This document shows, in pieces, positions 6,241 through 51,693 of a stretch of DNA of 64,000 nucleotides. The stretch is from the NCBI GenBank assembly GCA_945877815.1, contig CAMDWJ010000005.1, positions 15,549-79,548 on the forward strand, given 5' to 3'. The notes beneath the pieces are model-generated. The model saw only the letters and a list, made by a program, of their open reading frames with translations. It was not told where the DNA came from and made no database searches. The DNA is from Caenispirillum bisanense. GTDB taxonomy: Bacteria; Pseudomonadota; Alphaproteobacteria; Rhodospirillales; UBA2165. A program made the translations under genes and the position numbers. Each line of letters starts with the position of its first letter. Positions within the stretch are counted from its first letter, which is position 1.

Positions 6241-6345
6241 GGGTGGGAGACCGGACAATCGACCCGGCCGAAACTCGTTACGGCTGCTTCCTTCCGGACC
6301 TGACCGGGTTAGCGAGCAAGCCGTCCGCTCGCCGGCCTCCCAACC
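6241..6345 (-). ncRNA. ffs: signal recognition particle RNA (4.5S, small bacterial type)
   Basis: The minus strand contains the invariant domain IV core GGTCAGGTCCGGAAGGAAGCAGCC. The ends GGTTGGGAGGCCGG and CCGGTCTCCCACCC pair as a closing helix. Typical position upstream of dnaX. Ends are approximate. Confidence 0.8.
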
Positions 6346-34694: not shown

Positions 34695-35315
34695 GTGAGC
34701 GAGCCAAAACGGCGAGACGAAAGTCTCGCGACGATATCTGCGTCCGCGCCGCTCGTACGGGCGACTCTTTGGCTATCCGCCGTCGCTGCGATCGCCACAA
34801 TTTCCGTGTTCCTATTCGCGGATATGGACCTGGTCAGACGTCATTTAAAGACGCCCTATGCATGGCTCGAACTCGGCGCCATCGCCCTGACCGCGTGTGC
34901 CGCGATCCTGGCCGCTTTCTGCTTAAATACATCGCGAACCTCGCCCCGGCGGGTTTTCCTCCCCGTTCCGCCGCTTACGCTATGGCTGATCGTTTGCGCC
35001 TACGATTGCCTGAGGCACGTCACCCTGGTCGGGGCCGAGGCGTGGGATTTAGGCGATAGCCCGCACTGCGTCCTTTTCATTCTCGCCATCAGCATTCCGC
35101 TCGGCATTAGCGTGATGGCGACGTATCGTCTACGGCCGGGCCGCTCGTCTGCCCTCGCCGGGCTCGGCGTTGCAACATTCGCAATCTGCCTGCTGCAGTT
35201 CTTCCACCCGTTCGATTCGAATCTCACAGACCTGATCGCGCATATAACAGCGGCGGCGATCGTAGTCGGCGCGATGACTTATTCGGCGCAGCTCATGCCA
35301 ACGATTCGAAGCTGA
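34695..35315 (+). CDS. NrsF-family (DUF1109) anti-sigma-F paralogue, orphan copy 1
   Basis: Six-TM pattern with family motifs DSPHCVLFILAISIPLG and LLQFFHPFD. Paralogous to the gene at 39106-39741. GTG start. Confidence 0.75.
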   Translation: MSEPKRRDESLATISASAPLVRATLWLSAVAAIATISVFLFADMDLVRRHLKTPYAWLELGAIALTACAAILAAFCLNTSRTSPRRVFLPVPPLTLWLIVCAYDCLRHVTLVGAEAWDLGDSPHCVLFILAISIPLGISVMATYRLRPGRSSALAGLGVATFAICLLQFFHPFDSNLTDLIAHITAAAIVVGAMTYSAQLMPTIRS

Positions 35316-35380
35316 AATTCACTCGACGAAATTGCACTCGGATTCTGCCGGGCCAGGCCAGACCTCGGGTTATCCACAGG

Positions 35381-36076
35381 GTGAAGAATCGACTCGAACA
35401 GTATTTGTTGTCCGCACAGTCAGCAGATATCGCGCGAAAGACCCGAACCGTGACAGAGACGAAACGCCGTAGCGACCGCCTCGCCACACATACTGCGTCT
35501 GCTCCGCTGACCTGTGCGATGGTATTTCTCGCAACCTTGGCGTTTGTCGGCGGTTTGCTCGGCTATTTATTCGCCGACCATGATGAGTTGGCGCGCCAAA
35601 TCCGCGACCCGCGCGCAGCGTTCGAATGGTTCGGCGCGGGACTAACGACCGTCGGCGCGATCTTGGCGACGTTTCGCATGCATGCGCATGGCCCCACCGC
35701 ACTGTGGCGCGCCGGACCTTTGCTGACCTTCGCGACCTGGCAACTCGCGACGATTTATCTTTGCCATGACATCCCCACGGAGAAGCCCGCCGAACAGATT
35801 CTTTATGGACACAGTCCCGACTGTTTCCTGTTCATCCTGGCGATCAGCATTCCAGTAAGCAGCGCGTTGTTCTGGGTGTTGTGCCAACACCGCATCCCGC
35901 TCGGCAGTTCCGTGGCGGCCATGGCGGGCTTAAGTGCCGCGGCGGCATCGATCTGGCTCATGCAGTTCTTCCACGCGTTCGAGATGAATATCGGTGATTG
36001 GTCGATCCACTTCGCCGTGATCGGCATCGTCGTCGGATGTGCCGCTTATGCACGGCACATACTATCCAGCGATTAG
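35381..36076 (+). CDS. NrsF-family (DUF1109) anti-sigma-F paralogue, orphan copy 2
   Basis: Motifs HSPDCFLFILAISIPVS and LMQFFHAFE with the same TM layout. The GTG start is uncertain. Confidence 0.72.
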   Translation: MKNRLEQYLLSAQSADIARKTRTVTETKRRSDRLATHTASAPLTCAMVFLATLAFVGGLLGYLFADHDELARQIRDPRAAFEWFGAGLTTVGAILATFRMHAHGPTALWRAGPLLTFATWQLATIYLCHDIPTEKPAEQILYGHSPDCFLFILAISIPVSSALFWVLCQHRIPLGSSVAAMAGLSAAAASIWLMQFFHAFEMNIGDWSIHFAVIGIVVGCAAYARHILSSD

Positions 36077-36495
36077 TGTTCGATCTTGCGCACAATGAGG
36101 TGATCGAGCGAAATAGTGCCGGGCCCTCGCGTCAAAATGTAGCCGAGCATCGCGACCCACATAAGATGCGCGTTCCAGGATTCCGGATATACAAAGATCT
36201 GGATCACCACCGTCATTGCCAGCAACGGCAAGGTCGCTAGGCGCGTCGCTATACCAAGCAGCAAGAGTACAGGGCATGACAATTCCACTGCGGTCGCGAA
36301 CATCGCCGCAAGTTCGGGCGGCAGAAAAGGCACGCGATATTCGTCGCGAAACAGGACGATCGTCGTCTGCCAGCTGTCGATTTTGGTGAGGCCAGAATGC
36401 CAAAAGACTCCACCCACGGTCAGGCGGAACACAAACTGAAAAATCGATAGCGGCAGTCGCTCCATTTCCATCAACAATGATTTGAGATTCAACAT
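36073..36495 (-). CDS. DoxX-family membrane protein (last gene of the DUF2282/MNIO operon)
   Basis: RLTVGGVFWHSGLTKI...FATAVELSCPVLLLLGIATRLATLPLLAMT is a typical DoxX sequence. It starts 5 nt after the DUF2063 stop. Confidence 0.8.
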   Translation of the reverse strand: MLNLKSLLMEMERLPLSIFQFVFRLTVGGVFWHSGLTKIDSWQTTIVLFRDEYRVPFLPPELAAMFATAVELSCPVLLLLGIATRLATLPLLAMTVVIQIFVYPESWNAHLMWVAMLGYILTRGPGTISLDHLIVRKIEH

Positions 36496-36499
36496 CGTC

Positions 36500-37282
36500 T
36501 TAGGCACTCCCAACCAAGTTAAATCCCGCGATCGCGCCTTCGATGAACAGAGCCGCGCATTCCGCATTCACATCGAACTCGCCCTCTACGCCGGCGACAG
36601 CCTCAATGGCATCGCCGAGGGCGGTTCCGCCGTCCAGCGCGGCGCGAAAAGCGAAGGTTGCCGGTGCGAGCTCGCGGAATTCGACCACGCCGTCGCGGCG
36701 ACGCACTTCCAGCAACGCGCCACCGGATTCTAGATTGACGGGTGCGCGCGCAGTCACTTCAGATTGGTTCGCGCGCCAAATCTCAATGATCGGCCAAGGC
36801 GAGCACAAATATCCGAACGAGGGCTGGAATCGGAATGTCAGGCGTTCGGCATCGGCAGCGGCGAGCCCGCCAAGACTAGCCGGGTCCAATGGCGTCCCAT
36901 CGGCTGCCGCGCCGGCGCGCTGCAGCACCCATTCCAGCCGCGCGACATCAGCGAGATAGACCAATTCGCGGCAGGGAGGAAAATCGGCGAGAAAATCGGC
37001 AAATCGAGCGCCATAACCCGCAACGCAAGGAGTATCGGGCGGCAGACCGCAAATAAATTCGTGGGCCGCGAAGGCAAAAAAGCGCGCATCGACCAGCCGG
37101 CATACGACCGGAAAGGTCTCGGCAAGCGCCGCGCTCAGGGACATCCGGGCATTATTACGATGGATCTCGATCCGTTCGGCGGCGGCGATCCCCTCGACCT
37201 CGATAAATGCGGCCAGGGCCGTCGTGTCGCCGGCGAGAATGGCCCGGCGGAAGTCCCGTTGAATCTCAAGCAGCGAGGACAT
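36500..37282 (-). CDS. bufC: DUF2063-family protein, putative MNIO partner subunit (BufC-like)
   Basis: MSSLLEIQRDFRRAILAGD...IHRNN...LEWV is the DUF2063 N-domain pattern. It overlaps the DUF692 gene by 17 nt. Confidence 0.8.
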   Translation of the reverse strand: MSSLLEIQRDFRRAILAGDTTALAAFIEVEGIAAAERIEIHRNNARMSLSAALAETFPVVCRLVDARFFAFAAHEFICGLPPDTPCVAGYGARFADFLADFPPCRELVYLADVARLEWVLQRAGAAADGTPLDPASLGGLAAADAERLTFRFQPSFGYLCSPWPIIEIWRANQSEVTARAPVNLESGGALLEVRRRDGVVEFRELAPATFAFRAALDGGTALGDAIEAVAGVEGEFDVNAECAALFIEGAIAGFNLVGSA

Positions 37283-38108
37283 GAATGCTCCGCGCGATAC
37301 TTGCCTCGGCCACCAAATCTGCGAGGGCAGGCAGGTTCTTGTCGCGTTCGATCAGGCTCGGCACCGCGCCGAAACGATTGAGCGCAGCCCCGAACAGCGT
37401 CCAGACCTCGTCGCAAATGGCAGCGCCGTGATCGTCGATCAGCAAAGTCCGTTCGTCGATGTCGCACCGCGCATGACCGGCGAGATGGATTTCGCCGATC
37501 GCATCGGCGGGAAGCGTTTCCAGATAGAGGATCGGATCTTCACCGACATTGTGCGCGTTCACATAGAGATTGTTCACGTCGCAGAGAATTCCGCAGCCGG
37601 TGCGGCGGACGAGTTCGGCCAGAAATTCGGCCTCGGGAATGCGCGAATCACGAAAGCGCAGGTAACGCGAAGGATTCTCGACGAGCAGGGATCGGCCGAG
37701 ACCATCCTGCGCCGCCGCCACATTGCGAGTAACGATAGCGAGCGACTCTTCGGTGTAAGGCAGAGGCAAGAGATCGTTGAGATAGGCGCCGTCCACCACG
37801 CTCCAGGACAGATGCTCGGAGACCAAGAACGGTTGGACACGGTCGATCAGATCGCGAAAGCGCCCGAGATGGTCACGATCGAGCCCCTCCGCGCTGCCGA
37901 GCGACAGGCCGACGCCATGCAAACTCAGCATGAAGTCGCGGCGGATGTACATGAGCCGGGTGAAAGCCGGCCCGAAATCCATATAATTCTCGGCGTGCAC
38001 TTCGAGAAAATCGAGCGCGGGACGCGTTGCCGACAACTCATCGACGTGCGGTGCGCGCAGACCTATACCGATCTGCGCCTCCGCCCGTCGTGTTCGATCG
38101 TCGAACAT
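37266..38108 (-). CDS. bufB: DUF692-family multinuclear non-heme iron oxidative enzyme (MNIO; MbnB/BufB-like)
   Basis: IGIGLRAPH, FLEVHAENY, SLHGVGLSLGS, SEHLSW, LLVENPS, CDVNNLYVNAHN, IHLAGH and DDHG are the TIM-barrel metal-ligand motif series of DUF692. Confidence 0.88.
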   Translation of the reverse strand: MFDDRTRRAEAQIGIGLRAPHVDELSATRPALDFLEVHAENYMDFGPAFTRLMYIRRDFMLSLHGVGLSLGSAEGLDRDHLGRFRDLIDRVQPFLVSEHLSWSVVDGAYLNDLLPLPYTEESLAIVTRNVAAAQDGLGRSLLVENPSRYLRFRDSRIPEAEFLAELVRRTGCGILCDVNNLYVNAHNVGEDPILYLETLPADAIGEIHLAGHARCDIDERTLLIDDHGAAICDEVWTLFGAALNRFGAVPSLIERDKNLPALADLVAEASIARSIHVLAA

Positions 38109-38134
38109 GATCGCGTCCCGCGCCGATTGCCTGA

Positions 38135-38416
38135 TTACATCGGCTTCAAAGTAGCGCCTTGGATTTTCGCGCAGGTACCGACCGGCACGTAGATCCAGGC
38201 CTTGGGATCACTGGCGCGTTTGGCTTCGCCGGCGCACGAATTGCTGTTGGAGGAGGCGCAATCGTTTTTTCCGACCGCATTGACACCGTAGCATTTCTCG
38301 GCCTGGAAGCTCGGCGTGGGCGCCGGGGCAGCATTGGCCGCAAGCATGGGCAGGGCCACGAGGGCCGAGAAAGCCGAGGCCGCAAGCAGCGCGCTTTTGG
38401 TAGAAATATTTTGCAT
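38135..38416 (-). CDS. bufA: DUF2282-type Sec-signal, 4-Cys precursor peptide (BufA-like RiPP precursor)
   Basis: 93 aa. Signal peptide MQNISTKSALLAASAFSALVALPMLAANA|AP. Core with EKCYGV, NDCAS, NSCAGE and GTCAKI. SD GGGAGA lies 8 nt upstream. The track ORF (171 aa) was trimmed to the ATG at 38416. Confidence 0.85.
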   Translation of the reverse strand: MQNISTKSALLAASAFSALVALPMLAANAAPAPTPSFQAEKCYGVNAVGKNDCASSNSNSCAGEAKRASDPKAWIYVPVGTCAKIQGATLKPM

Positions 38417-38485
38417 GGATGAATCTCCCATTATGCTGAAGTGGATTACGGACCCAACATTGTCTACAAAGGTCCGTGCTCCCTG

Positions 38486-38511
38486 TTCGCACGATGACCG
38501 CACCGGGTTAC
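38486..38511 (-). promoter_or_regulatory. ECF sigma-F-type promoter candidate (GTAACC-N16-CGAA) driving the bufA operon
   Basis: The minus strand reads GTAACC CGGTGCGGTCATCGTG CGAA. It sits about 70 nt upstream of the bufA ATG. It is the only perfect occurrence I could find in the window. Confidence 0.6.
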
Positions 38512-38544
38512 AGGGGGCGGCGATAAAAACGAAAGCCCCCAGAC

Positions 38545-39102
38545 TTGGCGCGAACGAGAGAAAAAAACGCCGACTGGTCCCGCTGGATGGCGGCGGGACA
38601 GAACGGCGATTCGGCCTCCTATGAGCGACTCTTGCGCGCCGTGGTGCCATTCGTGCGGGCCGTCGTATCGCGCCATCATCGCGGAGACCGTATCGACGAT
38701 GCGGTACAGGACGTGCTCCTGACCGTCCATCGCGTGCGCCATACCTACGACCCGGCCCGGCCTTTCGACAATTGGCTTGCGACGATCGCGCATCGTCGGT
38801 CGATCGACCTCCTGCGTCGCCGCGCCCGTATCGCCGCCAACGAGACGAACGACGAATTGGCCTATGAAACCTTTGCCGATCCCATGGCGAACTCGGACTT
38901 GGAGAGGAATGCGCGGACCGAGGGATTGAGCGCGGCGATTGCCGCTTTGCCAGAAAGCCAGCGTGAGGCGATAGACTTGCTAAAGGTGCGCGAAATGACT
39001 CTGATCGAGGCGGCGCGAACCAGCGGCAAATCCATCGCGGCGTTGAAAGTGAATGTCCACCGCGCGATCAAAACGCTGCGGGCGCGGATGAAAGGAGATT
39101 AA
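38545..39102 (+). CDS. sigF: ECF RNA polymerase sigma factor (SigF-like)
   Basis: Region 2 (DDAVQDVLLTVHRVRHTYDPARPFDNWLATIAHRRSIDLLRR) and region 4 (LPESQREAIDLLKVREMTLIEAARTSGKSIAALKVNVHRA). The TTG start is uncertain; an in-frame ATG lies about 14 codons downstream. Confidence 0.88.
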   Translation: MARTREKNADWSRWMAAGQNGDSASYERLLRAVVPFVRAVVSRHHRGDRIDDAVQDVLLTVHRVRHTYDPARPFDNWLATIAHRRSIDLLRRRARIAANETNDELAYETFADPMANSDLERNARTEGLSAAIAALPESQREAIDLLKVREMTLIEAARTSGKSIAALKVNVHRAIKTLRARMKGD

Positions 39103-39105
39103 GAC

Positions 39106-39741
39106 GTGTCGGAAACTACGGACCAATTGATCCACCGGCTAGCACAGGATGCCGGTCCCGTCCGCCGCTTGAAAACGCCGCTGATGCGCGCCGCGGCCTG
39201 GTTCGCGGTGGTCGCGACAGGTTCCGCCGCCGCCGTAATCTGGCTCGCCGATTTTCCCGAATTCATGGCGCGCGCACACGATCCGCGCCATCTAATTGAG
39301 CTTGCGGCGACCCTGATGACCGGGGTCCTGGCGATCATTGCTGCCTTCGAGATGAGCCTGCCCGATCGCGCTCGCGCCTGGGCCGCCCTGCCGCTGCCGG
39401 CGCTCGCCCTATGGCTCGCGACAGCGGGTACTGGCTGCGTGCAAAATTGGATCGCGGGCGTGCCGTCGGATCCGAGCGAGAGCGCGGATTGTTTCGCCAT
39501 CATCGTCGCCACGAGCATCCCGCTCGCCGCGGTCCTTCTCTGGATGCTGCGCCGCGCGAAACCGCTGGCGCCCGGGCCGGTCGCGGCGATGGGCGGGTTG
39601 GGGGTGGCGGGCATCGCCGCATTTCTGCTGCAATTCTTCCACCCCTTCGACGTGACCCTGCTCGATCTTGCGATCCACGCCGTCGCGGTCGGATTGGTCG
39701 TCGGCGTATCCGCCGTCTCGGCGCGTGCGCTCCCCGCCTAA
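39106..39741 (+). CDS. nrsF: NrsF-family (DUF1109) anti-sigma-F factor
   Basis: Begins 3 nt after the sigma stop. Six TM helices. Motifs SADCFAIIVATSIPLA and LLQFFHPFD. Confidence 0.85.
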   Translation: MSETTDQLIHRLAQDAGPVRRLKTPLMRAAAWFAVVATGSAAAVIWLADFPEFMARAHDPRHLIELAATLMTGVLAIIAAFEMSLPDRARAWAALPLPALALWLATAGTGCVQNWIAGVPSDPSESADCFAIIVATSIPLAAVLLWMLRRAKPLAPGPVAAMGGLGVAGIAAFLLQFFHPFDVTLLDLAIHAVAVGLVVGVSAVSARALPA

Positions 39742-40607
39742 CTCTTCCACTCCCAACTCGTCGGTGCGTCAGGTGCATCGACGATGCGGTTGCGCATCGC
39801 TCCGATATCGCCGAGTTCGGATTCGAGCACGTCGCCGTCTTTCAGAAACCAATCGCCGCCCTTGTGTCCCATCGCAACGCCCGACGGCGTGCCAGTGAGA
39901 ATGACGTCACCCGCTTCCAGCGTCATCTGCGAGAGATAGGCAATCAGTTTTGGAATCGGCCAGATCATGTTCGACGTGTTGGACTCCTGGCGCACCTCGC
40001 CGTTGACGCGCGTGCGCAACGCGAGGTTCATCGGATCGGCGATTTCGTCGGCGGTCACGAACCACGGTCCCATCGGGCAAAAGGTATCGAACATCTTGCC
40101 CAGCAACTGATTGCCCTCGGCACGTTCTGTCGCGACAACGTCGCGCGCCGTGATGTCCGATGCGATCGAATAGCCCGCGATCACGGAAGTGGCGTCCTCC
40201 TCGCGCACATGGCGGCACCGCTTGCCAATCACCACGGCGAGTTCGGTTTCGTAATCGAGTTTGCGCGTCGCGCGCGGCTTGACGATATCGTCATAGGCGC
40301 CGGTCAGGGTCGAGGTTGCCTTGATCCAGGCCGACGGAACGACGTTCGGGAAGCGCCCGTCGCCGGCCGACATTTCGCTATTGTGCGAACGGTAGTTTCG
40401 CCCGACCGCGATAATCTTCGACGGCCGCGCTACGGGCGCCAGCAATCGGCATTCGGACAAGGGACGCGCGAAAGCGCTTTGCGTAAGCTTGCCGCCCCGC
40501 AGCCATTCAACGAGATCGTCCCCGCCCGGCAGTTCGGCGACGCGCTCGTCGGAGACGACGAGGCCCAAGCGAGCCTCACCGCCCACGGCATAACGGACAA
40601 CTTTCAA
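39738..40607 (-). CDS. fumarylacetoacetate hydrolase (FAH) family protein
   Basis: KIIAVGRNYRSH, DYETELAVVIGK, GKMFDTFCPMGP and GDVILTGTPSGV motifs. The TTG start overlaps the upstream stop (TTGA). Confidence 0.85.
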   Translation of the reverse strand: MKVVRYAVGGEARLGLVVSDERVAELPGGDDLVEWLRGGKLTQSAFARPLSECRLLAPVARPSKIIAVGRNYRSHNSEMSAGDGRFPNVVPSAWIKATSTLTGAYDDIVKPRATRKLDYETELAVVIGKRCRHVREEDATSVIAGYSIASDITARDVVATERAEGNQLLGKMFDTFCPMGPWFVTADEIADPMNLALRTRVNGEVRQESNTSNMIWPIPKLIAYLSQMTLEAGDVILTGTPSGVAMGHKGGDWFLKDGDVLESELGDIGAMRNRIVDAPDAPTSWEWKS

Positions 40608-41863
40608 TAGACGTGCTCGACAAGTTCCTCGGCCTCGATCCGACCCGAGGCGACCAATTCGGCGCGCGAGCGGGCCTTCCACTCGGCGCGTGGCATAAAG
40701 CCCGGCGTCGAATGGACGCGATCGGCGACATGTTTCAGCAAGGTCGCATCGTCCATGCCGAAATCGAGGGGCCAAGCGATCGGAGCCGGAATGTAATAGT
40801 CGGACTCGTATGAAATCTCGAGCGAATTGCCTTCCGGATCGTCGCAATACAGCGAATAGGAATTGCCGTGGTTAATCGGGCGGAAGTTCGCGCAGCCCGG
40901 AATCGTGCGAAGTGAATCGTTTATGCCGCGCAGCGTCGTGATATCGGGCACGCGGAAGGTGACCTGGTTGACGCTCGATTTTATTTTGGGATCGCGGCCC
41001 GAAACCAAAATCAATTGCGCCACCTGATTGGGATCGCGGGTGAGATACACAATATCCGCAGCGGCTTGTCCGCCGAACGCCGGCATCCGCCCCTTGCCGG
41101 TCACCAGATAGCCGAGCGTCTGCGCGTAGAAAGCCTGGAGGCGATCCATATCGGCGACATAGATGCCAACCTGATGCATCGCGATTTTCGGGAACGGATC
41201 GGCGGGTGCGTGTGTTCCGACCGGGCGGCGGAAAACGCTTTCGCTTGAAGTGATCTTGGCATCGATGCTGGGCGTGGCTTGCGACGCGAGCCGGCCGAGA
41301 CTGGCCAGAACCTTATGCGTCTCCTCGGCCCAGGCGGCGCGCAACATGAACCCCAGTGTCGTGCGGCACTGTCCCTCGGTCTGCGTCATGATCTCCACGT
41401 CCGAGCGCGACAAATCGAGCGGCCAATAGGCCGGCTGCGGCACATACCAGCCGGTGTTGACCGAGGCCGAGATACGGTGGCCCTGCGGATCGACGAAATA
41501 GAGTGTCCAAGCGATGCCGTGATCGGCGGCTTCGATTCCAGTCACCCCCGGCTCGCGCTCGAGGCGCGCCTTCATGCGACGCAGTTCAGCCAAATCGGGC
41601 GCGAGAAACCCGATCTGATTGACGGTGGATGGCAACTCCTTCGGCCGACCGCCGGCGATGACCAGCTGATGATGTTCCCACGGGCGCCGCGTCATGAAGG
41701 ACATATCGAATTCGACGGGGCCGGCATGGACATGGCCGCAATCGCTGACCGCGAAGCCCATCACGCGCGTATAGAAATCCTCGAGCGCCGCGACGTCTTG
41801 GCAAAACACGCCGAAATGGCTGAACACCAGCGCCGGCACATTCTGCTCGCTAACACTAATCAT
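40604..41863 (-). CDS. tandem-duplicated VOC/extradiol dioxygenase-like protein
   Basis: Two homologous halves of about 200 aa. Compare HHQLVIAGGRPKELPSTVNQIGF...GWYVPQPAYWPLDL with VAQLILVSGRDPKIKSSVNQVTF...DYYIPAPIAWPLDF. Confidence 0.75.
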   Translation of the reverse strand: MISVSEQNVPALVFSHFGVFCQDVAALEDFYTRVMGFAVSDCGHVHAGPVEFDMSFMTRRPWEHHQLVIAGGRPKELPSTVNQIGFLAPDLAELRRMKARLEREPGVTGIEAADHGIAWTLYFVDPQGHRISASVNTGWYVPQPAYWPLDLSRSDVEIMTQTEGQCRTTLGFMLRAAWAEETHKVLASLGRLASQATPSIDAKITSSESVFRRPVGTHAPADPFPKIAMHQVGIYVADMDRLQAFYAQTLGYLVTGKGRMPAFGGQAAADIVYLTRDPNQVAQLILVSGRDPKIKSSVNQVTFRVPDITTLRGINDSLRTIPGCANFRPINHGNSYSLYCDDPEGNSLEISYESDYYIPAPIAWPLDFGMDDATLLKHVADRVHSTPGFMPRAEWKARSRAELVASGRIEAEELVEHVY

Positions 41864-41884
41864 CTACACCTCCCAAAACTTAGT

Positions 41885-43303
41885 TTATTTCCCGTTATCT
41901 TTGGCCGCCGCTTCGCCCGCGCGCAAGCCCAACACGAACGCCTTCACGATCCCGCCGACATAGCCGACATTCGGGCCGCCTTCGAGACCGCCGGTGGACG
42001 AACCCGCCGCGTACAGGCCGGAAATGATCGTGCCCTTGTCGGTGAGCACATGCGCGTGGGCATCGATATCGATACCGCCCATGGTGTTGGTGACCCCGGC
42101 ACAGACCTTGATCGCGCAATAGGGCGCTTCGATGGCATGGGCCTTGGCCTTTTTCTCGGTGCGGATCGGACTTAAGCGATCCAGCGTGGCGCCCTTGAGC
42201 GCCGCGTTGTAGCCCGCAAGCGTAGCGGCGAGTGCATCGGCAGGCACATCGATGGCGCGTGCGATTCCGGGGATATCGGCCGCCTCGATCAATGTGCCGC
42301 CGTTGTCGGTAAGTTCCGAATTGGGCGGCGATACACCGCCGGTCGCGATATCGTCCCAGATCTTGCGGCTCAAAACGACCGTCGCCGACAACGGATCGGC
42401 GAGCTTGGCAATGGCATTGGCGACGAACACCGCGCCGCGTCCCTCGTCGACGAAACGATTTCCCGTCCCGTCCACCAGGATCGACGCGGTCGCGGCGATA
42501 TCGATATTAGGATAGGGCCACAGCCGATCATCGGTCATCGCCTCTCGCGCCAGAATGTGGCCGTAGAAGGCGCCGATCTCGGTGATCTTGGCACCGGCGT
42601 CGCGCGCCATGCGGATGCCATCGCCGGTGGCCGACGGGGTCGCGCGCAATTTCACGCGGGTCGGCTCCGGCGTCACCGTATCCTTGAGCATGGCGGGGTT
42701 CGCCTGGAAACCGCCGTCGGCAATGACGATGGCCTTCGCGCCATAGCGCAGCATATCGCCCTCGTGGCGAGCATCGACACCGACGCACACGCCTTCAGCC
42801 ATGACGAGGTTCGCCACCTCGACGCCGCGGATTACCCGCCCGCCGAGATTGACGAGTTTCTGCTCGAGCGCCATCAGCGTTTGATCCGGACCCCTGCCTT
42901 GCCAATCGAGCCCGGCGCGCATGGCGCGCGGCGGCGCCAGAACGAGATGCGCGCGCCCCGCCACATAGCTCATCGCTTTTTCATGTTCGAGGCGCACGCC
43001 GTGGGCCGTCAGCCAATCGACGATGCGGGCGGCGTCCTCGGCGATCGCGCGCACGAGTTCGGGTTTCGCATAGTTCATCGTTTCCGTGTTGATCGCGGCG
43101 ATCAGCCCTTCTGTGCCGAGACGCACATCGTTCGAGGCGACGTGGAAAACCCCGGTCGCGATGCGCGAATTGTTGAATTGCTTTGGCCCGCTCTGGCGCT
43201 CGATCACGAGGACCGACAGGCCAAGTTCACGGCCACGCAACGCGGCGGTTAGGCCAGCGAAACCGGCGCCGATGCAAATCAGATCTACGTCTTCGCCGAT
43301 CAT
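41885..43303 (-). CDS. FAD-dependent oxidoreductase (FAD_binding_2; fumarate reductase/ketosteroid dehydrogenase-like)
   Basis: DLICIGAGFAGLTAAL dinucleotide fold plus C-terminal GLYAAGSSTGG. Start trimmed to MIGEDVD. Confidence 0.82.
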   Translation of the reverse strand: MIGEDVDLICIGAGFAGLTAALRGRELGLSVLVIERQSGPKQFNNSRIATGVFHVASNDVRLGTEGLIAAINTETMNYAKPELVRAIAEDAARIVDWLTAHGVRLEHEKAMSYVAGRAHLVLAPPRAMRAGLDWQGRGPDQTLMALEQKLVNLGGRVIRGVEVANLVMAEGVCVGVDARHEGDMLRYGAKAIVIADGGFQANPAMLKDTVTPEPTRVKLRATPSATGDGIRMARDAGAKITEIGAFYGHILAREAMTDDRLWPYPNIDIAATASILVDGTGNRFVDEGRGAVFVANAIAKLADPLSATVVLSRKIWDDIATGGVSPPNSELTDNGGTLIEAADIPGIARAIDVPADALAATLAGYNAALKGATLDRLSPIRTEKKAKAHAIEAPYCAIKVCAGVTNTMGGIDIDAHAHVLTDKGTIISGLYAAGSSTGGLEGGPNVGYVGGIVKAFVLGLRAGEAAAKDNGK

Positions 43304-43504
43304 GTCGATGCCTCTCCCGTATGGTTTCTCATAATTAATGTGAATCCTGCGCAGACCCGAGGGTTGTTGACAACGCACGTTGGCGCGATGCGCTCCGCCG
43401 TGCGCGCAATCGGCCGCCGATCCGAGTCTAGCAACACTCGTAGATTTTCAGACAAAACCTAAAATAGCTCGTCTATCGCGGTCCATTGCGCAGGATCACA
43501 CGAG

Positions 43505-44041
43505 GTGAAACGCGTCGCCATATTCACAAATGCCGGTGGCGGTAAATCGACCCTGGCCAAGCACCTGGTCGATATCGCCGGCCTGCCGTTGTACGTTGTG
43601 GATAAAATGCGATTCCTGCCCGGAGGCGATGCCGTGCCTCATCAGCAATATTTGGCCACGCACGCGGAGCTGATACAGCGCGATGACTGGATCATCGATG
43701 GTTTCGAAAACGTCGCCACGGCGTGGGAACGATTTGACCGGGCCGACACGCTGATCCACGTCGATCTGCCGCGGGCCGTGCATTACTGGTGGGTCACGAA
43801 GCGCTTCGTCAAAGGTCTTTTTAGAAACCCGGATGGCTGGCCTGAAAACAGTCCTCTCTGGAGCAGCACGCTCTCGAGCTATTCGGTCATCTCGCGGTGT
43901 CATCGCAACCTGACGCCGAGGTATAGGCAGTTGCTTTTGGATTCGGCGGCGTCGAAACGTGTCCACCATCTCAGATCGCCTGCCGAGATCGCGAATTTTC
44001 TCGAAACGGTGAGGCGCGAAGCCGCGCGATCTATAAAATAA
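43505..44041 (+). CDS. P-loop NTPase, adenylate-kinase / topology-modulation (FlaR)-like
   Basis: Walker A NAGGGKST near the N-terminus. About 178 aa. GTG start. Confidence 0.6.
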   Translation: MKRVAIFTNAGGGKSTLAKHLVDIAGLPLYVVDKMRFLPGGDAVPHQQYLATHAELIQRDDWIIDGFENVATAWERFDRADTLIHVDLPRAVHYWWVTKRFVKGLFRNPDGWPENSPLWSSTLSSYSVISRCHRNLTPRYRQLLLDSAASKRVHHLRSPAEIANFLETVRREAARSIK

Positions 44042-44513
44042 AGCTGACGCTTCCGAGGCTCGCCAATTCCAGCGCGTCCAGACGCACGATCCGCTCGGCA
44101 ATCTTTAGGTCACTCGCCGCCTTCGCCAGCTTGAAGTGATAGGTGCCGACATATTGGCGGATGTCTTCGTTGCGACGGAAGCGATAGATGACGAAGTTGG
44201 CGGCCAGGGTGACGGTATGATCGTCCTGCTCAAGAATCCGGACATTCGAAATCATCCGCCGCGTGCGCGAATGTGGAAATTCGGCATGCGCATTGCGGCT
44301 TTTCAAACGGACAATGCGGGCCTTGATGCGGGCAATATCGTCGGCGATGGTGAAAAGCGTGTTTCCGATTTCGCCCTGCGGCTGATCGTTGGGCGGAATG
44401 CGGTAGACGGCATCCTCGGTGAGCAGATCCAGCCATTCGTCGAGACGCCACTCGTCGAGCAGAGCCGCTTCGCGATACAGGAAATCCTCAACCTCTCCAC
44501 GCGAGACCGTCAT
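44031..44513 (-). CDS. aromatic ring-hydroxylating dioxygenase beta subunit
   Basis: EVEDFLYREAALLDEWRLDEWLDLLTEDAVY is the typical SnoaL-like beta-subunit N-terminus. Its ATG overlaps the alpha-subunit stop (ATGA). Confidence 0.85.
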   Translation of the reverse strand: MTVSRGEVEDFLYREAALLDEWRLDEWLDLLTEDAVYRIPPNDQPQGEIGNTLFTIADDIARIKARIVRLKSRNAHAEFPHSRTRRMISNVRILEQDDHTVTLAANFVIYRFRRNEDIRQYVGTYHFKLAKAASDLKIAERIVRLDALELASLGSVSFIL

Positions 44514-45805
44514 TGCGCGGCCGCCGCAGCGACGTCGTTGCCCATATGCCTGGCCCACTGGCGCCAGAAGGCGCGCAGATGCAATTCATCCGTATTGAGC
44601 TGCTCGCCGGTCTTGTTGATCCCGCGCGACAGTTCCGACCATTCGATCTCGCGCCAAGTCTTCAAACCCGCCTGTACGCATTCCAAAGCTTCGACGTCGT
44701 CCGGCGTCGCAAACCCGCCCGGCCCATAGAAAGTGAGGAAGCTGTCGAGCCGACGCGCGCGTGCGGTTTCGGATTCTTCGGTCGGGCCGAGCGCCCAGGC
44801 GGTGACGCGCATGCGATCGACGGCGAGCGGATGGAAGGCGCGGATGGTGACGGAGGATCCGTCGTTGATGACGAGATTGGGAAAGATCACGAGATTGCGA
44901 TTGGTATCGGCGACCCGCGCCGCGCGATCGGCACCCAAACGTTCCACCAGCTCGTCGCGGATGACCGCGATCTCGGGTTTGGACTCCTCGCCATAAATGG
45001 GGATCCAGCGGGCGACGGGCCGGCCACGGAAATTGACGTTGTCGATCACGGCATGGCCATTTCCGAGATCTATGCCGACGCCGTGCGAAGGCAGCAGGTG
45101 TCCCGCCTCCGGCGCTTGAAACTCGACGCCAGCATCCTTGATATATTTGAGCCAGGTCGCGTGCGTGCTGAGCAGGTGATAGTCGTCGAAGGAATTTTCG
45201 ACAAGCAGCTTCCAATTGGCGGCGATGTCGTATTCCTGAGTGCCCTGGATCAAATGCATCTTGCCGGACGGCGACTGATCGACGACGAGATCGATATATT
45301 CCTTGGCGCCCGCGAGATAATCGACGAGCGGCATGGCGTTTTTATCAAAATTCACGAACCAGAAATCGCGATAGCTTTCGAGACGGGGCACCGATGTCAG
45401 GCCGAATTTGGATTGATCGAAATTCGGCGGATAGGATTCCTTGCCCGGCACAATCGTCAGGTTCCCGTCCGCGTCGTAAACCCAGCCATGATAGAAACAC
45501 ACATGGCGCTTGGCATTGCCGGCGCTCTCGCGGCACACGAGGGCCGCGCGGTGACGGCACGAATTAAGCAGGGCCTTCACCGCGCCGTCGGCCCCGCGGC
45601 AGAAAATCAGCGGACGCCCGCAGATGGTACGGGTGCGGAAATCGCCGGGCGCGGCCAATTCAGAATCGTGGCCGACATAGATCCAGCAGGTATCGAAAAT
45701 GCGACGGCGCTCCGCCTCGAGCACCGCTTCATCAACGAGGGTGCGGCGGTTGACCCGAAAGGTCATCTTGTCAGGTTCGTCGATCACGTATTGGTTTGAT
45801 GTCAT
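44510..45805 (-). CDS. Rieske (2Fe-2S) aromatic ring-hydroxylating dioxygenase alpha subunit
   Basis: Rieske motif CRHRAALV...CFYHGW, plus a catalytic-domain His/Asp region (DDYHLLSTH). Confidence 0.88.
   Translation of the reverse strand: MTSNQYVIDEPDKMTFRVNRRTLVDEAVLEAERRRIFDTCWIYVGHDSELAAPGDFRTRTICGRPLIFCRGADGAVKALLNSCRHRAALVCRESAGNAKRHVCFYHGWVYDADGNLTIVPGKESYPPNFDQSKFGLTSVPRLESYRDFWFVNFDKNAMPLVDYLAGAKEYIDLVVDQSPSGKMHLIQGTQEYDIAANWKLLVENSFDDYHLLSTHATWLKYIKDAGVEFQAPEAGHLLPSHGVGIDLGNGHAVIDNVNFRGRPVARWIPIYGEESKPEIAVIRDELVERLGADRAARVADTNRNLVIFPNLVINDGSSVTIRAFHPLAVDRMRVTAWALGPTEESETARARRLDSFLTFYGPGGFATPDDVEALECVQAGLKTWREIEWSELSRGINKTGEQLNTDELHLRAFWRQWARHMGNDVAAAAAQ

Positions 45806-51606: not shown

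Positions 51607-51693
<87 letters not shown>

Follow-up and report, generated by a model that had tools for sequence, protein, structure and literature searches.

The locus

In the 64-kb window (the whole stretch of DNA analysed; GC content, 60.8%), a short minus-strand gene that is very probably bufA heads the tight operon bufABCD, with genes for an ECF sigma factor and an anti-sigma factor on the opposite strand. The features are listed below in window coordinates, with the basis of each in brackets.

38135..38416, minus: bufA, probable Buf1-type bufferin precursor, DUF2282/BufA1 (translation, Pfam, homologues, public gene calls)
38330..38416, minus: predicted Sec signal peptide, residues 1-29, MQNISTKSALLAASAFSALVALPMLAANA (rule-based; predicted SPase I cleavage after A29)
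38138..38329, minus: 64-aa core peptide after ANA (C42/C82, predicted disulfide; C53/C61, predicted 5-thiooxazoles)
38424..38429, minus: Shine-Dalgarno sequence GGGAGA (direct sequence reading)
38486..38511, minus: sigmaF-type ECF promoter motif GTAACC-N16-CGAA (exact match)
37266..38108, minus: bufB, MNIO (DUF692) bufferin maturase, 280 aa (Pfam MbnB_TglH_ChrH, E 4.6e-98)
36500..37282, minus: bufC, DUF2063 partner protein, 260 aa (Pfam PF09836, E 6.2e-21; weak HvfC match)
36073..36495, minus: bufD, DoxX-family membrane protein, 140 aa as called (Pfam DoxX, E 1.8e-17)
38584..39102, plus: divergent ECF sigma factor, SigF-like, 171 aa as called (Sigma70_r2, r4_2, TIGR02937)
39106..39741, plus: nrsF, anti-sigma factor (DUF1109/NrsF), 211 aa (Pfam PF06532, E 8.4e-22)

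The gap between bufA and bufB is 26 nt, bufC overlaps bufB by 17 nt, and the gene order around bufA is identical in public gene calls. Two gene starts differ between sources: the public doxX call (140 aa) begins at 36495, 4 nt after the bufC stop, and the mechanical ORF spans 36073-36567 (164 aa); for the sigma gene, the public call gives 171 aa beginning at ATG 38584 and the mechanical list 185 aa from TTG 38545. Once reverse-complemented, part of the 86.8-kb contig k141_956450 (ENA metagenome assembly ERZ27280309) is identical to positions 35135-41416 and, by inference, to the whole window. Beyond nrsF, a minus-strand block (39738-45805) holds catabolic-looking genes that appear unrelated to the bufferin operon, including FAA-hydrolase family and two-domain glyoxalase/extradiol-dioxygenase-like proteins (Pfam). 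Read from the ORF list, the block also has a flavoprotein-like ORF and a 431-aa protein that carries the Rieske motif CxH...CxxH (CRHR...CFYHGW), with a small ORF resembling a beta subunit after it.

The precursor gene and its product

Read on the minus strand, bufA (38416 to 38135) gives 93 aa plus a stop; translation of the plus strand over the same interval is meaningless. The GGGAGA stands off the ATG by a 7-nt spacer, its last base at -8 relative to the A, and the gene is enclosed by a 171-aa ORF (38135..38650, minus) that the mechanical ORF list begins at an upstream ATG. The product matched Pfam PF10048 (DUF2282; current Pfam name in the public calls, BufA1) with an E value of 1.7e-20 and 73.2 bits (gathering score, 22.4), over profile positions 2-51 of 53. 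In a word-indexed search across 5.8 billion proteins, the precursor had 397 homologues, most of them 88-95 aa long, and exhaustive phmmer of the precursor against 1.84 billion representatives returned 1,091 representative clusters (E≤0.001). The nearest named relatives are from Stellaceae and uncultured Alphaproteobacteria MAGs. Where strain DNA encodes an identical precursor, the differences are confined to third codon positions (2-3 sites). A six-frame scan of the window found no second bufferin-like precursor.

The N-terminus was assessed by the classical rules (n, h, and c regions; -3/-1 rule). The n-region has one Lys (Lys7), the h-region is a 20-residue uncharged run (residues 8-27), and ANA/AP at residue 29 satisfies the -3/-1 rule, with A27 and A29 conserved at 97-98% among 120 homologues. 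The same three features stand ahead of CysI in 111 of 140 diverse family members. Neither a lipobox Cys nor a twin-arginine motif was found in a rule-based scan of the precursor N-terminus, and no other hydrophobic segment of the precursor approaches the h-region. In Caulobacter vibrioides BufA1, mass spectrometry located the cut where a signal-peptidase site had been predicted, and a beta-lactamase reporter was exported by means of the signal peptide (PMC11626156). By analogy, the precursor would be cleaved by SPase I after A29.

The earlier note on this DNA had described a 93-aa translation with Cys at positions 42, 53, 61, and 82, a GGGAGA 8 nt upstream, an enclosing 171-aa ORF, a signal peptide with n-region, h-region, and ANA site, and an MNIO context. 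The translation and the Cys contexts matched exactly, on the minus strand, the earlier note having named no strand; the Shine-Dalgarno sequence was located at 38429-38424 and the enclosing ORF in the ORF list; the classical rules and the conserved AxA bore out the signal peptide; and the MNIO (DUF692) gene is real and lies directly downstream of bufA. The observation is thus confirmed in each of its elements.

The Cys codons lie at 38293-38291 (C42, in EKCYGV), 38260-38258 (C53, in NDCA), 38236-38234 (C61, in SCAG), and 38173-38171 (C82, in GTC), which are residues 13, 24, 32, and 53 of the core. Across 121 sequences (120 close homologues plus the query), each of the four Cys is invariant, as is its context (EKCYG, NDC, SCAG, GTC); in the query and 138 representatives drawn from clusters at 50% identity, the four Cys are conserved at 99, 98, 99, and 94%, and E40, K41, G44, N51, D52, G63, and G80 at 92% or more each. 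Cys spacing is 11/8/21, and the family range is 11/7-9/21 (139 diverse sequences). Alignment with DUF2282 members, which had been proposed as a check on the cysteine pattern, thus found it conserved in the 121 close and the 139 diverse sequences alike.

An AF2 model of the precursor (31-sequence alignment) had a mean pLDDT of 54.5, which is low confidence. Its strands at residues 39-43 and 74-78 equal the NMR-verified strand positions of Buf1 shifted by one residue, in a low-confidence model; because the pLDDT was too low for a fold search, the strand positions alone were used, as weak support. Nothing in the PDB matched the precursor sequence at E≤1, so by sequence the precursor has no solved relative.

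Operon and regulation

The MNIO scored 356.8 bits on the NCBIfam MNIO_BufB equivalog model, which it passes (cutoff, 310), and fell below the NCBIfam cutoffs for HvfB, MbnB, ApyH, and ChrH. For comparison, 80 bufA-related loci were taken from GTDB genomes of Alpha-, Beta-, and Gammaproteobacteria, Acidobacteriota, Methylomirabilota, and others (none from Caulobacter). A bufB gene lies within 5 kb of bufA in 69 of the 80, directly downstream in all of these except L044, L067, and L075, and bufC and doxX are also present in most of the 80. The arrangement bufABCD with sigma and nrsF genes is a standard Buf1 cluster type in a 2025 survey of MNIO clusters (PMC12452194).

The motif GTAACC-N16-CGAA, defined experimentally in Caulobacter as the sigmaF-binding motif (Kohler et al. 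2012, PMC3511200), lies on the bufA strand with its 3' end 70 nt upstream of the bufA ATG. It is the single exact match in the 64-kb window, where 0.04 would be expected by chance. With one mismatch allowed there are 10 matches (2.7 expected), and none in the window except the bufA site is obviously upstream of a gene start. The same motif precedes bufA in 14 of the 80 related loci, mostly those with an adjoining sigma factor. With this motif upstream and sigF-nrsF adjacent, the locus has the marks of a SigF/NrsF regulon member, the promoter being a predicted one. In Caulobacter, NrsF keeps sigmaF at the membrane until metal stress frees it, and sigmaF responds to chromium and cadmium (PMC3511200). 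An Rfam scan found no RNA element in or near the bufA leader; elsewhere in the window, it identified a bacterial small SRP RNA (63.7 bits; 6243-6340, minus) and one tRNA (51607-51690, plus).

Within 38506-38533, the -35 element of the bufA promoter (GTAACC on the minus strand) reads GGTTAC on the plus strand. An overlapping plus-strand GTTACA-N17-CGAA (38507-38533) could, speculatively, be a back-to-back promoter for the sigma gene (ATG 38584). This sequence departs from the consensus by two mismatches and by one extra base in the spacer.

Three NrsF-family (PF06532) paralogues, all on the plus strand (34695-35315, 35519-36076, and 39106-39741), surround the single ECF sigma gene. Two of the three are convergent with doxX at its end, with a 4-nt overlap of the doxX stop in one case. 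The three share 32-38% identity and all retain a Cys pair (C111/C129 in the first), which is probably the counterpart of the cysteines that matter for function in Caulobacter NrsF. By tblastn, more than one NrsF match was found in none of the 80 related loci.

The query also belongs to a small sub-clade with homologues P0002, P0004, P0006, P0076, P0112, and P0116. Its members have Asn for the usual His before S-C(III) at residue 59, Ala for Ser before the conserved Trp at residue 73 (KAW versus KSW), and at residues 90-93 an end in ...LKPM or ...LKAM, not ...TPKA. The mature peptide would contain no His and a single, C-terminal Met. Of the 121 close sequences, 27 have the Asn of NSCAG, as do 36 of the 139 diverse ones, and the Buf1 copper site is apparently independent of His (PMC11626156). 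From a His-less sub-clade combined with three NrsF paralogues that keep the Cys pair, a shifted metal preference might follow, or induction by several signals via competing anti-sigma factors; we consider this unlikely.

Identity and proposed function

Bufferins are a family of copper-chelating modified peptides described in 2024 (Leprevost et al., PNAS 2024, PMC11626156). The precursor carries every sequence-level feature of Buf1: the profile match, the four Cys, the rule-based signal peptide, and neighbouring MNIO, DUF2063, and DoxX genes. We consider it very probable that the gene is bufA and that its product is a Buf1-type bufferin precursor, the source of a ribosomal peptide that would chelate copper in the periplasm. 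This reading draws on what is seen directly in the DNA (the sequence features, the family match, the operon layout, the promoter motif, and the conservation); modification sites, chemistry, cleavage, copper binding, and regulation are carried over by homology from C. vibrioides Buf1.

The Buf1 system of C. vibrioides comprises BufA1 (CCNA_03363/CC3254), BufB1, BufC1, BufD1, and SigF-NrsF (PMC11626156, PMC3511200). In BufA1, CysII and CysIII (core Cys23 and Cys31) are each oxidised by four electrons to give a 5-thiooxazole, and CysI and CysIV (Cys12 and Cys52) are unmodified and disulfide-bonded, as assigned from mass spectrometry, NMR, and Cys-to-Ser variants (PMC11626156). The modification needs both BufB1 and BufC1, which together suffice for it, and DoxX is dispensable; the mature 68-residue Buf1 binds one Cu2+ via 2N+2S (KD, ~6e-15 M) and protects against copper (PMC11626156). 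Copper binding and protection are known for C. vibrioides Buf1 and Buf2 only (PMC11626156).

The earlier note held that the MNIO oxidises some of the Cys and that the others may form a disulfide in a Sec-exported precursor, which agrees with the experiments on BufA1, the founding member of the family (PMC11626156). Its further statement that the sequence does not reveal which Cys are modified no longer holds: the 11/8/21 spacing is that of BufA1, so by homology C53 and C61 would be the modified residues, as 5-thiooxazoles, and C42-C82 the disulfide. The predicted monoisotopic mass of the mature modified core is 6545.08 Da, versus 6555.15 Da unmodified.

In the proposed scheme, metal stress would inactivate the membrane anti-sigma factor NrsF, and the freed ECF sigma factor would fire the GTAACC-N16-CGAA promoter, leading to transcription of bufABCD. 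In the cytoplasm, the di-iron MNIO BufB and its DUF2063 partner BufC would oxidise C53 and C61, by four electrons each, to 5-thiooxazoles. Sec would then export the 93-aa precursor, with signal peptidase I cutting after Ala29, and in the periplasm the C42-C82 disulfide would staple the first beta-strand to the C-terminal turn. The resulting 64-residue mini-protein would bind one copper ion via its two thiooxazoles (2N+2S) and so buffer excess copper.

Alternative readings

A different start, either at the ATG of the 171-aa ORF (38650) or at an in-frame ATG 21 nt upstream of the bufA start (38437, adding MGDSSMQ to the N-terminus), would bury or alter the signal peptide. Both the enclosing ORF and the nearer ATG are present, over-long gene models occur in ~5% of close homologues and in many representatives, and the Caulobacter orthologue was initially annotated too long, from a wrong start (PMC3511200). 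Against this, 112 of the 120 closest homologues are 88-95 aa long, and in the 171-aa version the Pfam match is confined to residues 118-166. ATG 38650 lies within the divergent sigma gene, upstream of the sigmaF promoter (38511-38486); ATG 38437 is not preceded by a Shine-Dalgarno sequence and overlaps the GGGAGA of the 38416 start; and the in-frame extension at related locus L001 is unrelated in sequence. Concern that an automated caller could mis-start the gene was not borne out here, as public gene callers chose the 93-aa start, on 10 contigs carrying the precursor. We regard a different start as very improbable and retain ATG 38416.

With that start kept, the product might still be an unmodified, small, membrane-anchored or periplasmic Cys-rich protein that binds metal through free thiols, with the MNIO acting elsewhere. 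The old DUF2282/Pfam label, "predicted integral membrane protein," is in keeping with this, as is the sizeable share of Buf1 precursor genes that have no adjoining MNIO gene (PMC12452194). Here, however, the MNIO and partner genes follow bufA directly, in the same order as in most of the 80 loci, the sole hydrophobic stretch of the precursor is N-terminal and ends in a conserved AxA site, and BufB and BufC were both required, and together sufficed, for modification of BufA1 in vitro (PMC11626156), which leaves this reading very little room. Modification of the central Cys to methanobactin-like oxazolone-thioamide pairs instead of 5-thiooxazoles is barely credible. The two groups are isomeric and hard to distinguish, and oxazolin was originally assigned oxazolone/thioamide (PMC11252979), but it has since been reassigned to 5-thiooxazole, bufferins were assigned 5-thiooxazoles by selective 13C/15N labelling, and the BufB of this locus reaches 55 bits on the MbnB model (cutoff, 325). 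The thioamide-type oxidation mentioned in the earlier note has, for this MNIO subfamily, likewise given way to 5-thiooxazole chemistry. A modified Buf1-type bufferin therefore remains the preferred reading.

Significance

The locus is a textbook Buf1 member in a standard operon, real but ordinary. Its precursor anatomy falls within a published family and is thus already known (publications of 2024-2026); the anatomical reasoning of the earlier note was sound, arriving from raw sequence at what the field established only by 2024. Departures from the Buf1 norm (the His-less core, the ...LKPM end, and the two additional NrsF paralogues) are minor. The annotation "BufA1 family bufferin precursor" should replace "DUF2282 / predicted integral membrane protein," and the operon would mark a sigmaF-controlled copper or metal stress defence in a soil-type proteobacterium that is uncultured. 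Beyond correct annotation, the significance is little.

Comparison with known systems

Among MNIO-modified peptides, Buf2 (BufA2, Buf_6/12Cys) resembles the query as a Sec-exported, BufB/BufC-modified thiooxazole copper binder, but has six conserved Cys and clusters without doxX or sigma/nrsF genes (PMC12452194). The two are weakly alike in sequence, but a Buf2 precursor was considered for this gene and rejected (NCBIfam BufA2, NF050166, 25.5 bits against a cutoff of 60; four Cys, not six). Oxazolin (HvfA), fontiphorin, gonophorin, and bulbicupramide share with the query a signal peptide and an operon with an MNIO, a DUF2063/RRE partner, and DoxX. These EGKCG-repeat peptides have 5-thiooxazole copper ligands in common with bufferins; their precursors bear EGKCG motifs in repeats and are probably unstructured, whereas the query has a folded four-Cys domain. 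An EGKCG/oxazolin precursor was also rejected (no EGKCG repeat; MNIO at 231 bits on the HvfB model, cutoff 360). In the methanobactin system (MbnA/MbnB/MbnC), an MNIO likewise creates a copper ligand by oxidising Cys in a ribosomal peptide, but a leader peptide takes the place of the Sec signal, the product is an oxazolone-thioamide, a dedicated exporter is used, and the peptide is a secreted copper-acquisition agent, not a periplasmic buffer. A methanobactin precursor was set aside on the MbnB score given above and the Sec-type signal of the query.

The closest counterpart is Caulobacter Buf1, which has the same bufABCD order, adjacent sigF/nrsF, and the same GTAACC-N16-CGAA motif. C. vibrioides BufA1 belongs to the same Pfam family and has the same 93-aa precursor length as the query. 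It was compared via the residue numbers printed in PMC11626156, not by pairwise alignment. By those numbers, its core Cys12/23/31/52 and the query's 13/24/32/53 have the same 11/8/21 spacing with a one-residue shift, and its Glu10, Cys12, and Tyr13, its Ser30-Cys31-Ala32, and its Trp44 and Val47 correspond to E-K-C-Y, S-C-A, and W-I-Y-V of the query at shifted positions. The query differs in its shorter core (64 versus 68 aa), which lacks His, has NSCAG in place of the family-typical HSCAG, and ends in ...LKPM, and its operon, unlike that of Caulobacter Buf1, has two extra NrsF paralogues alongside.
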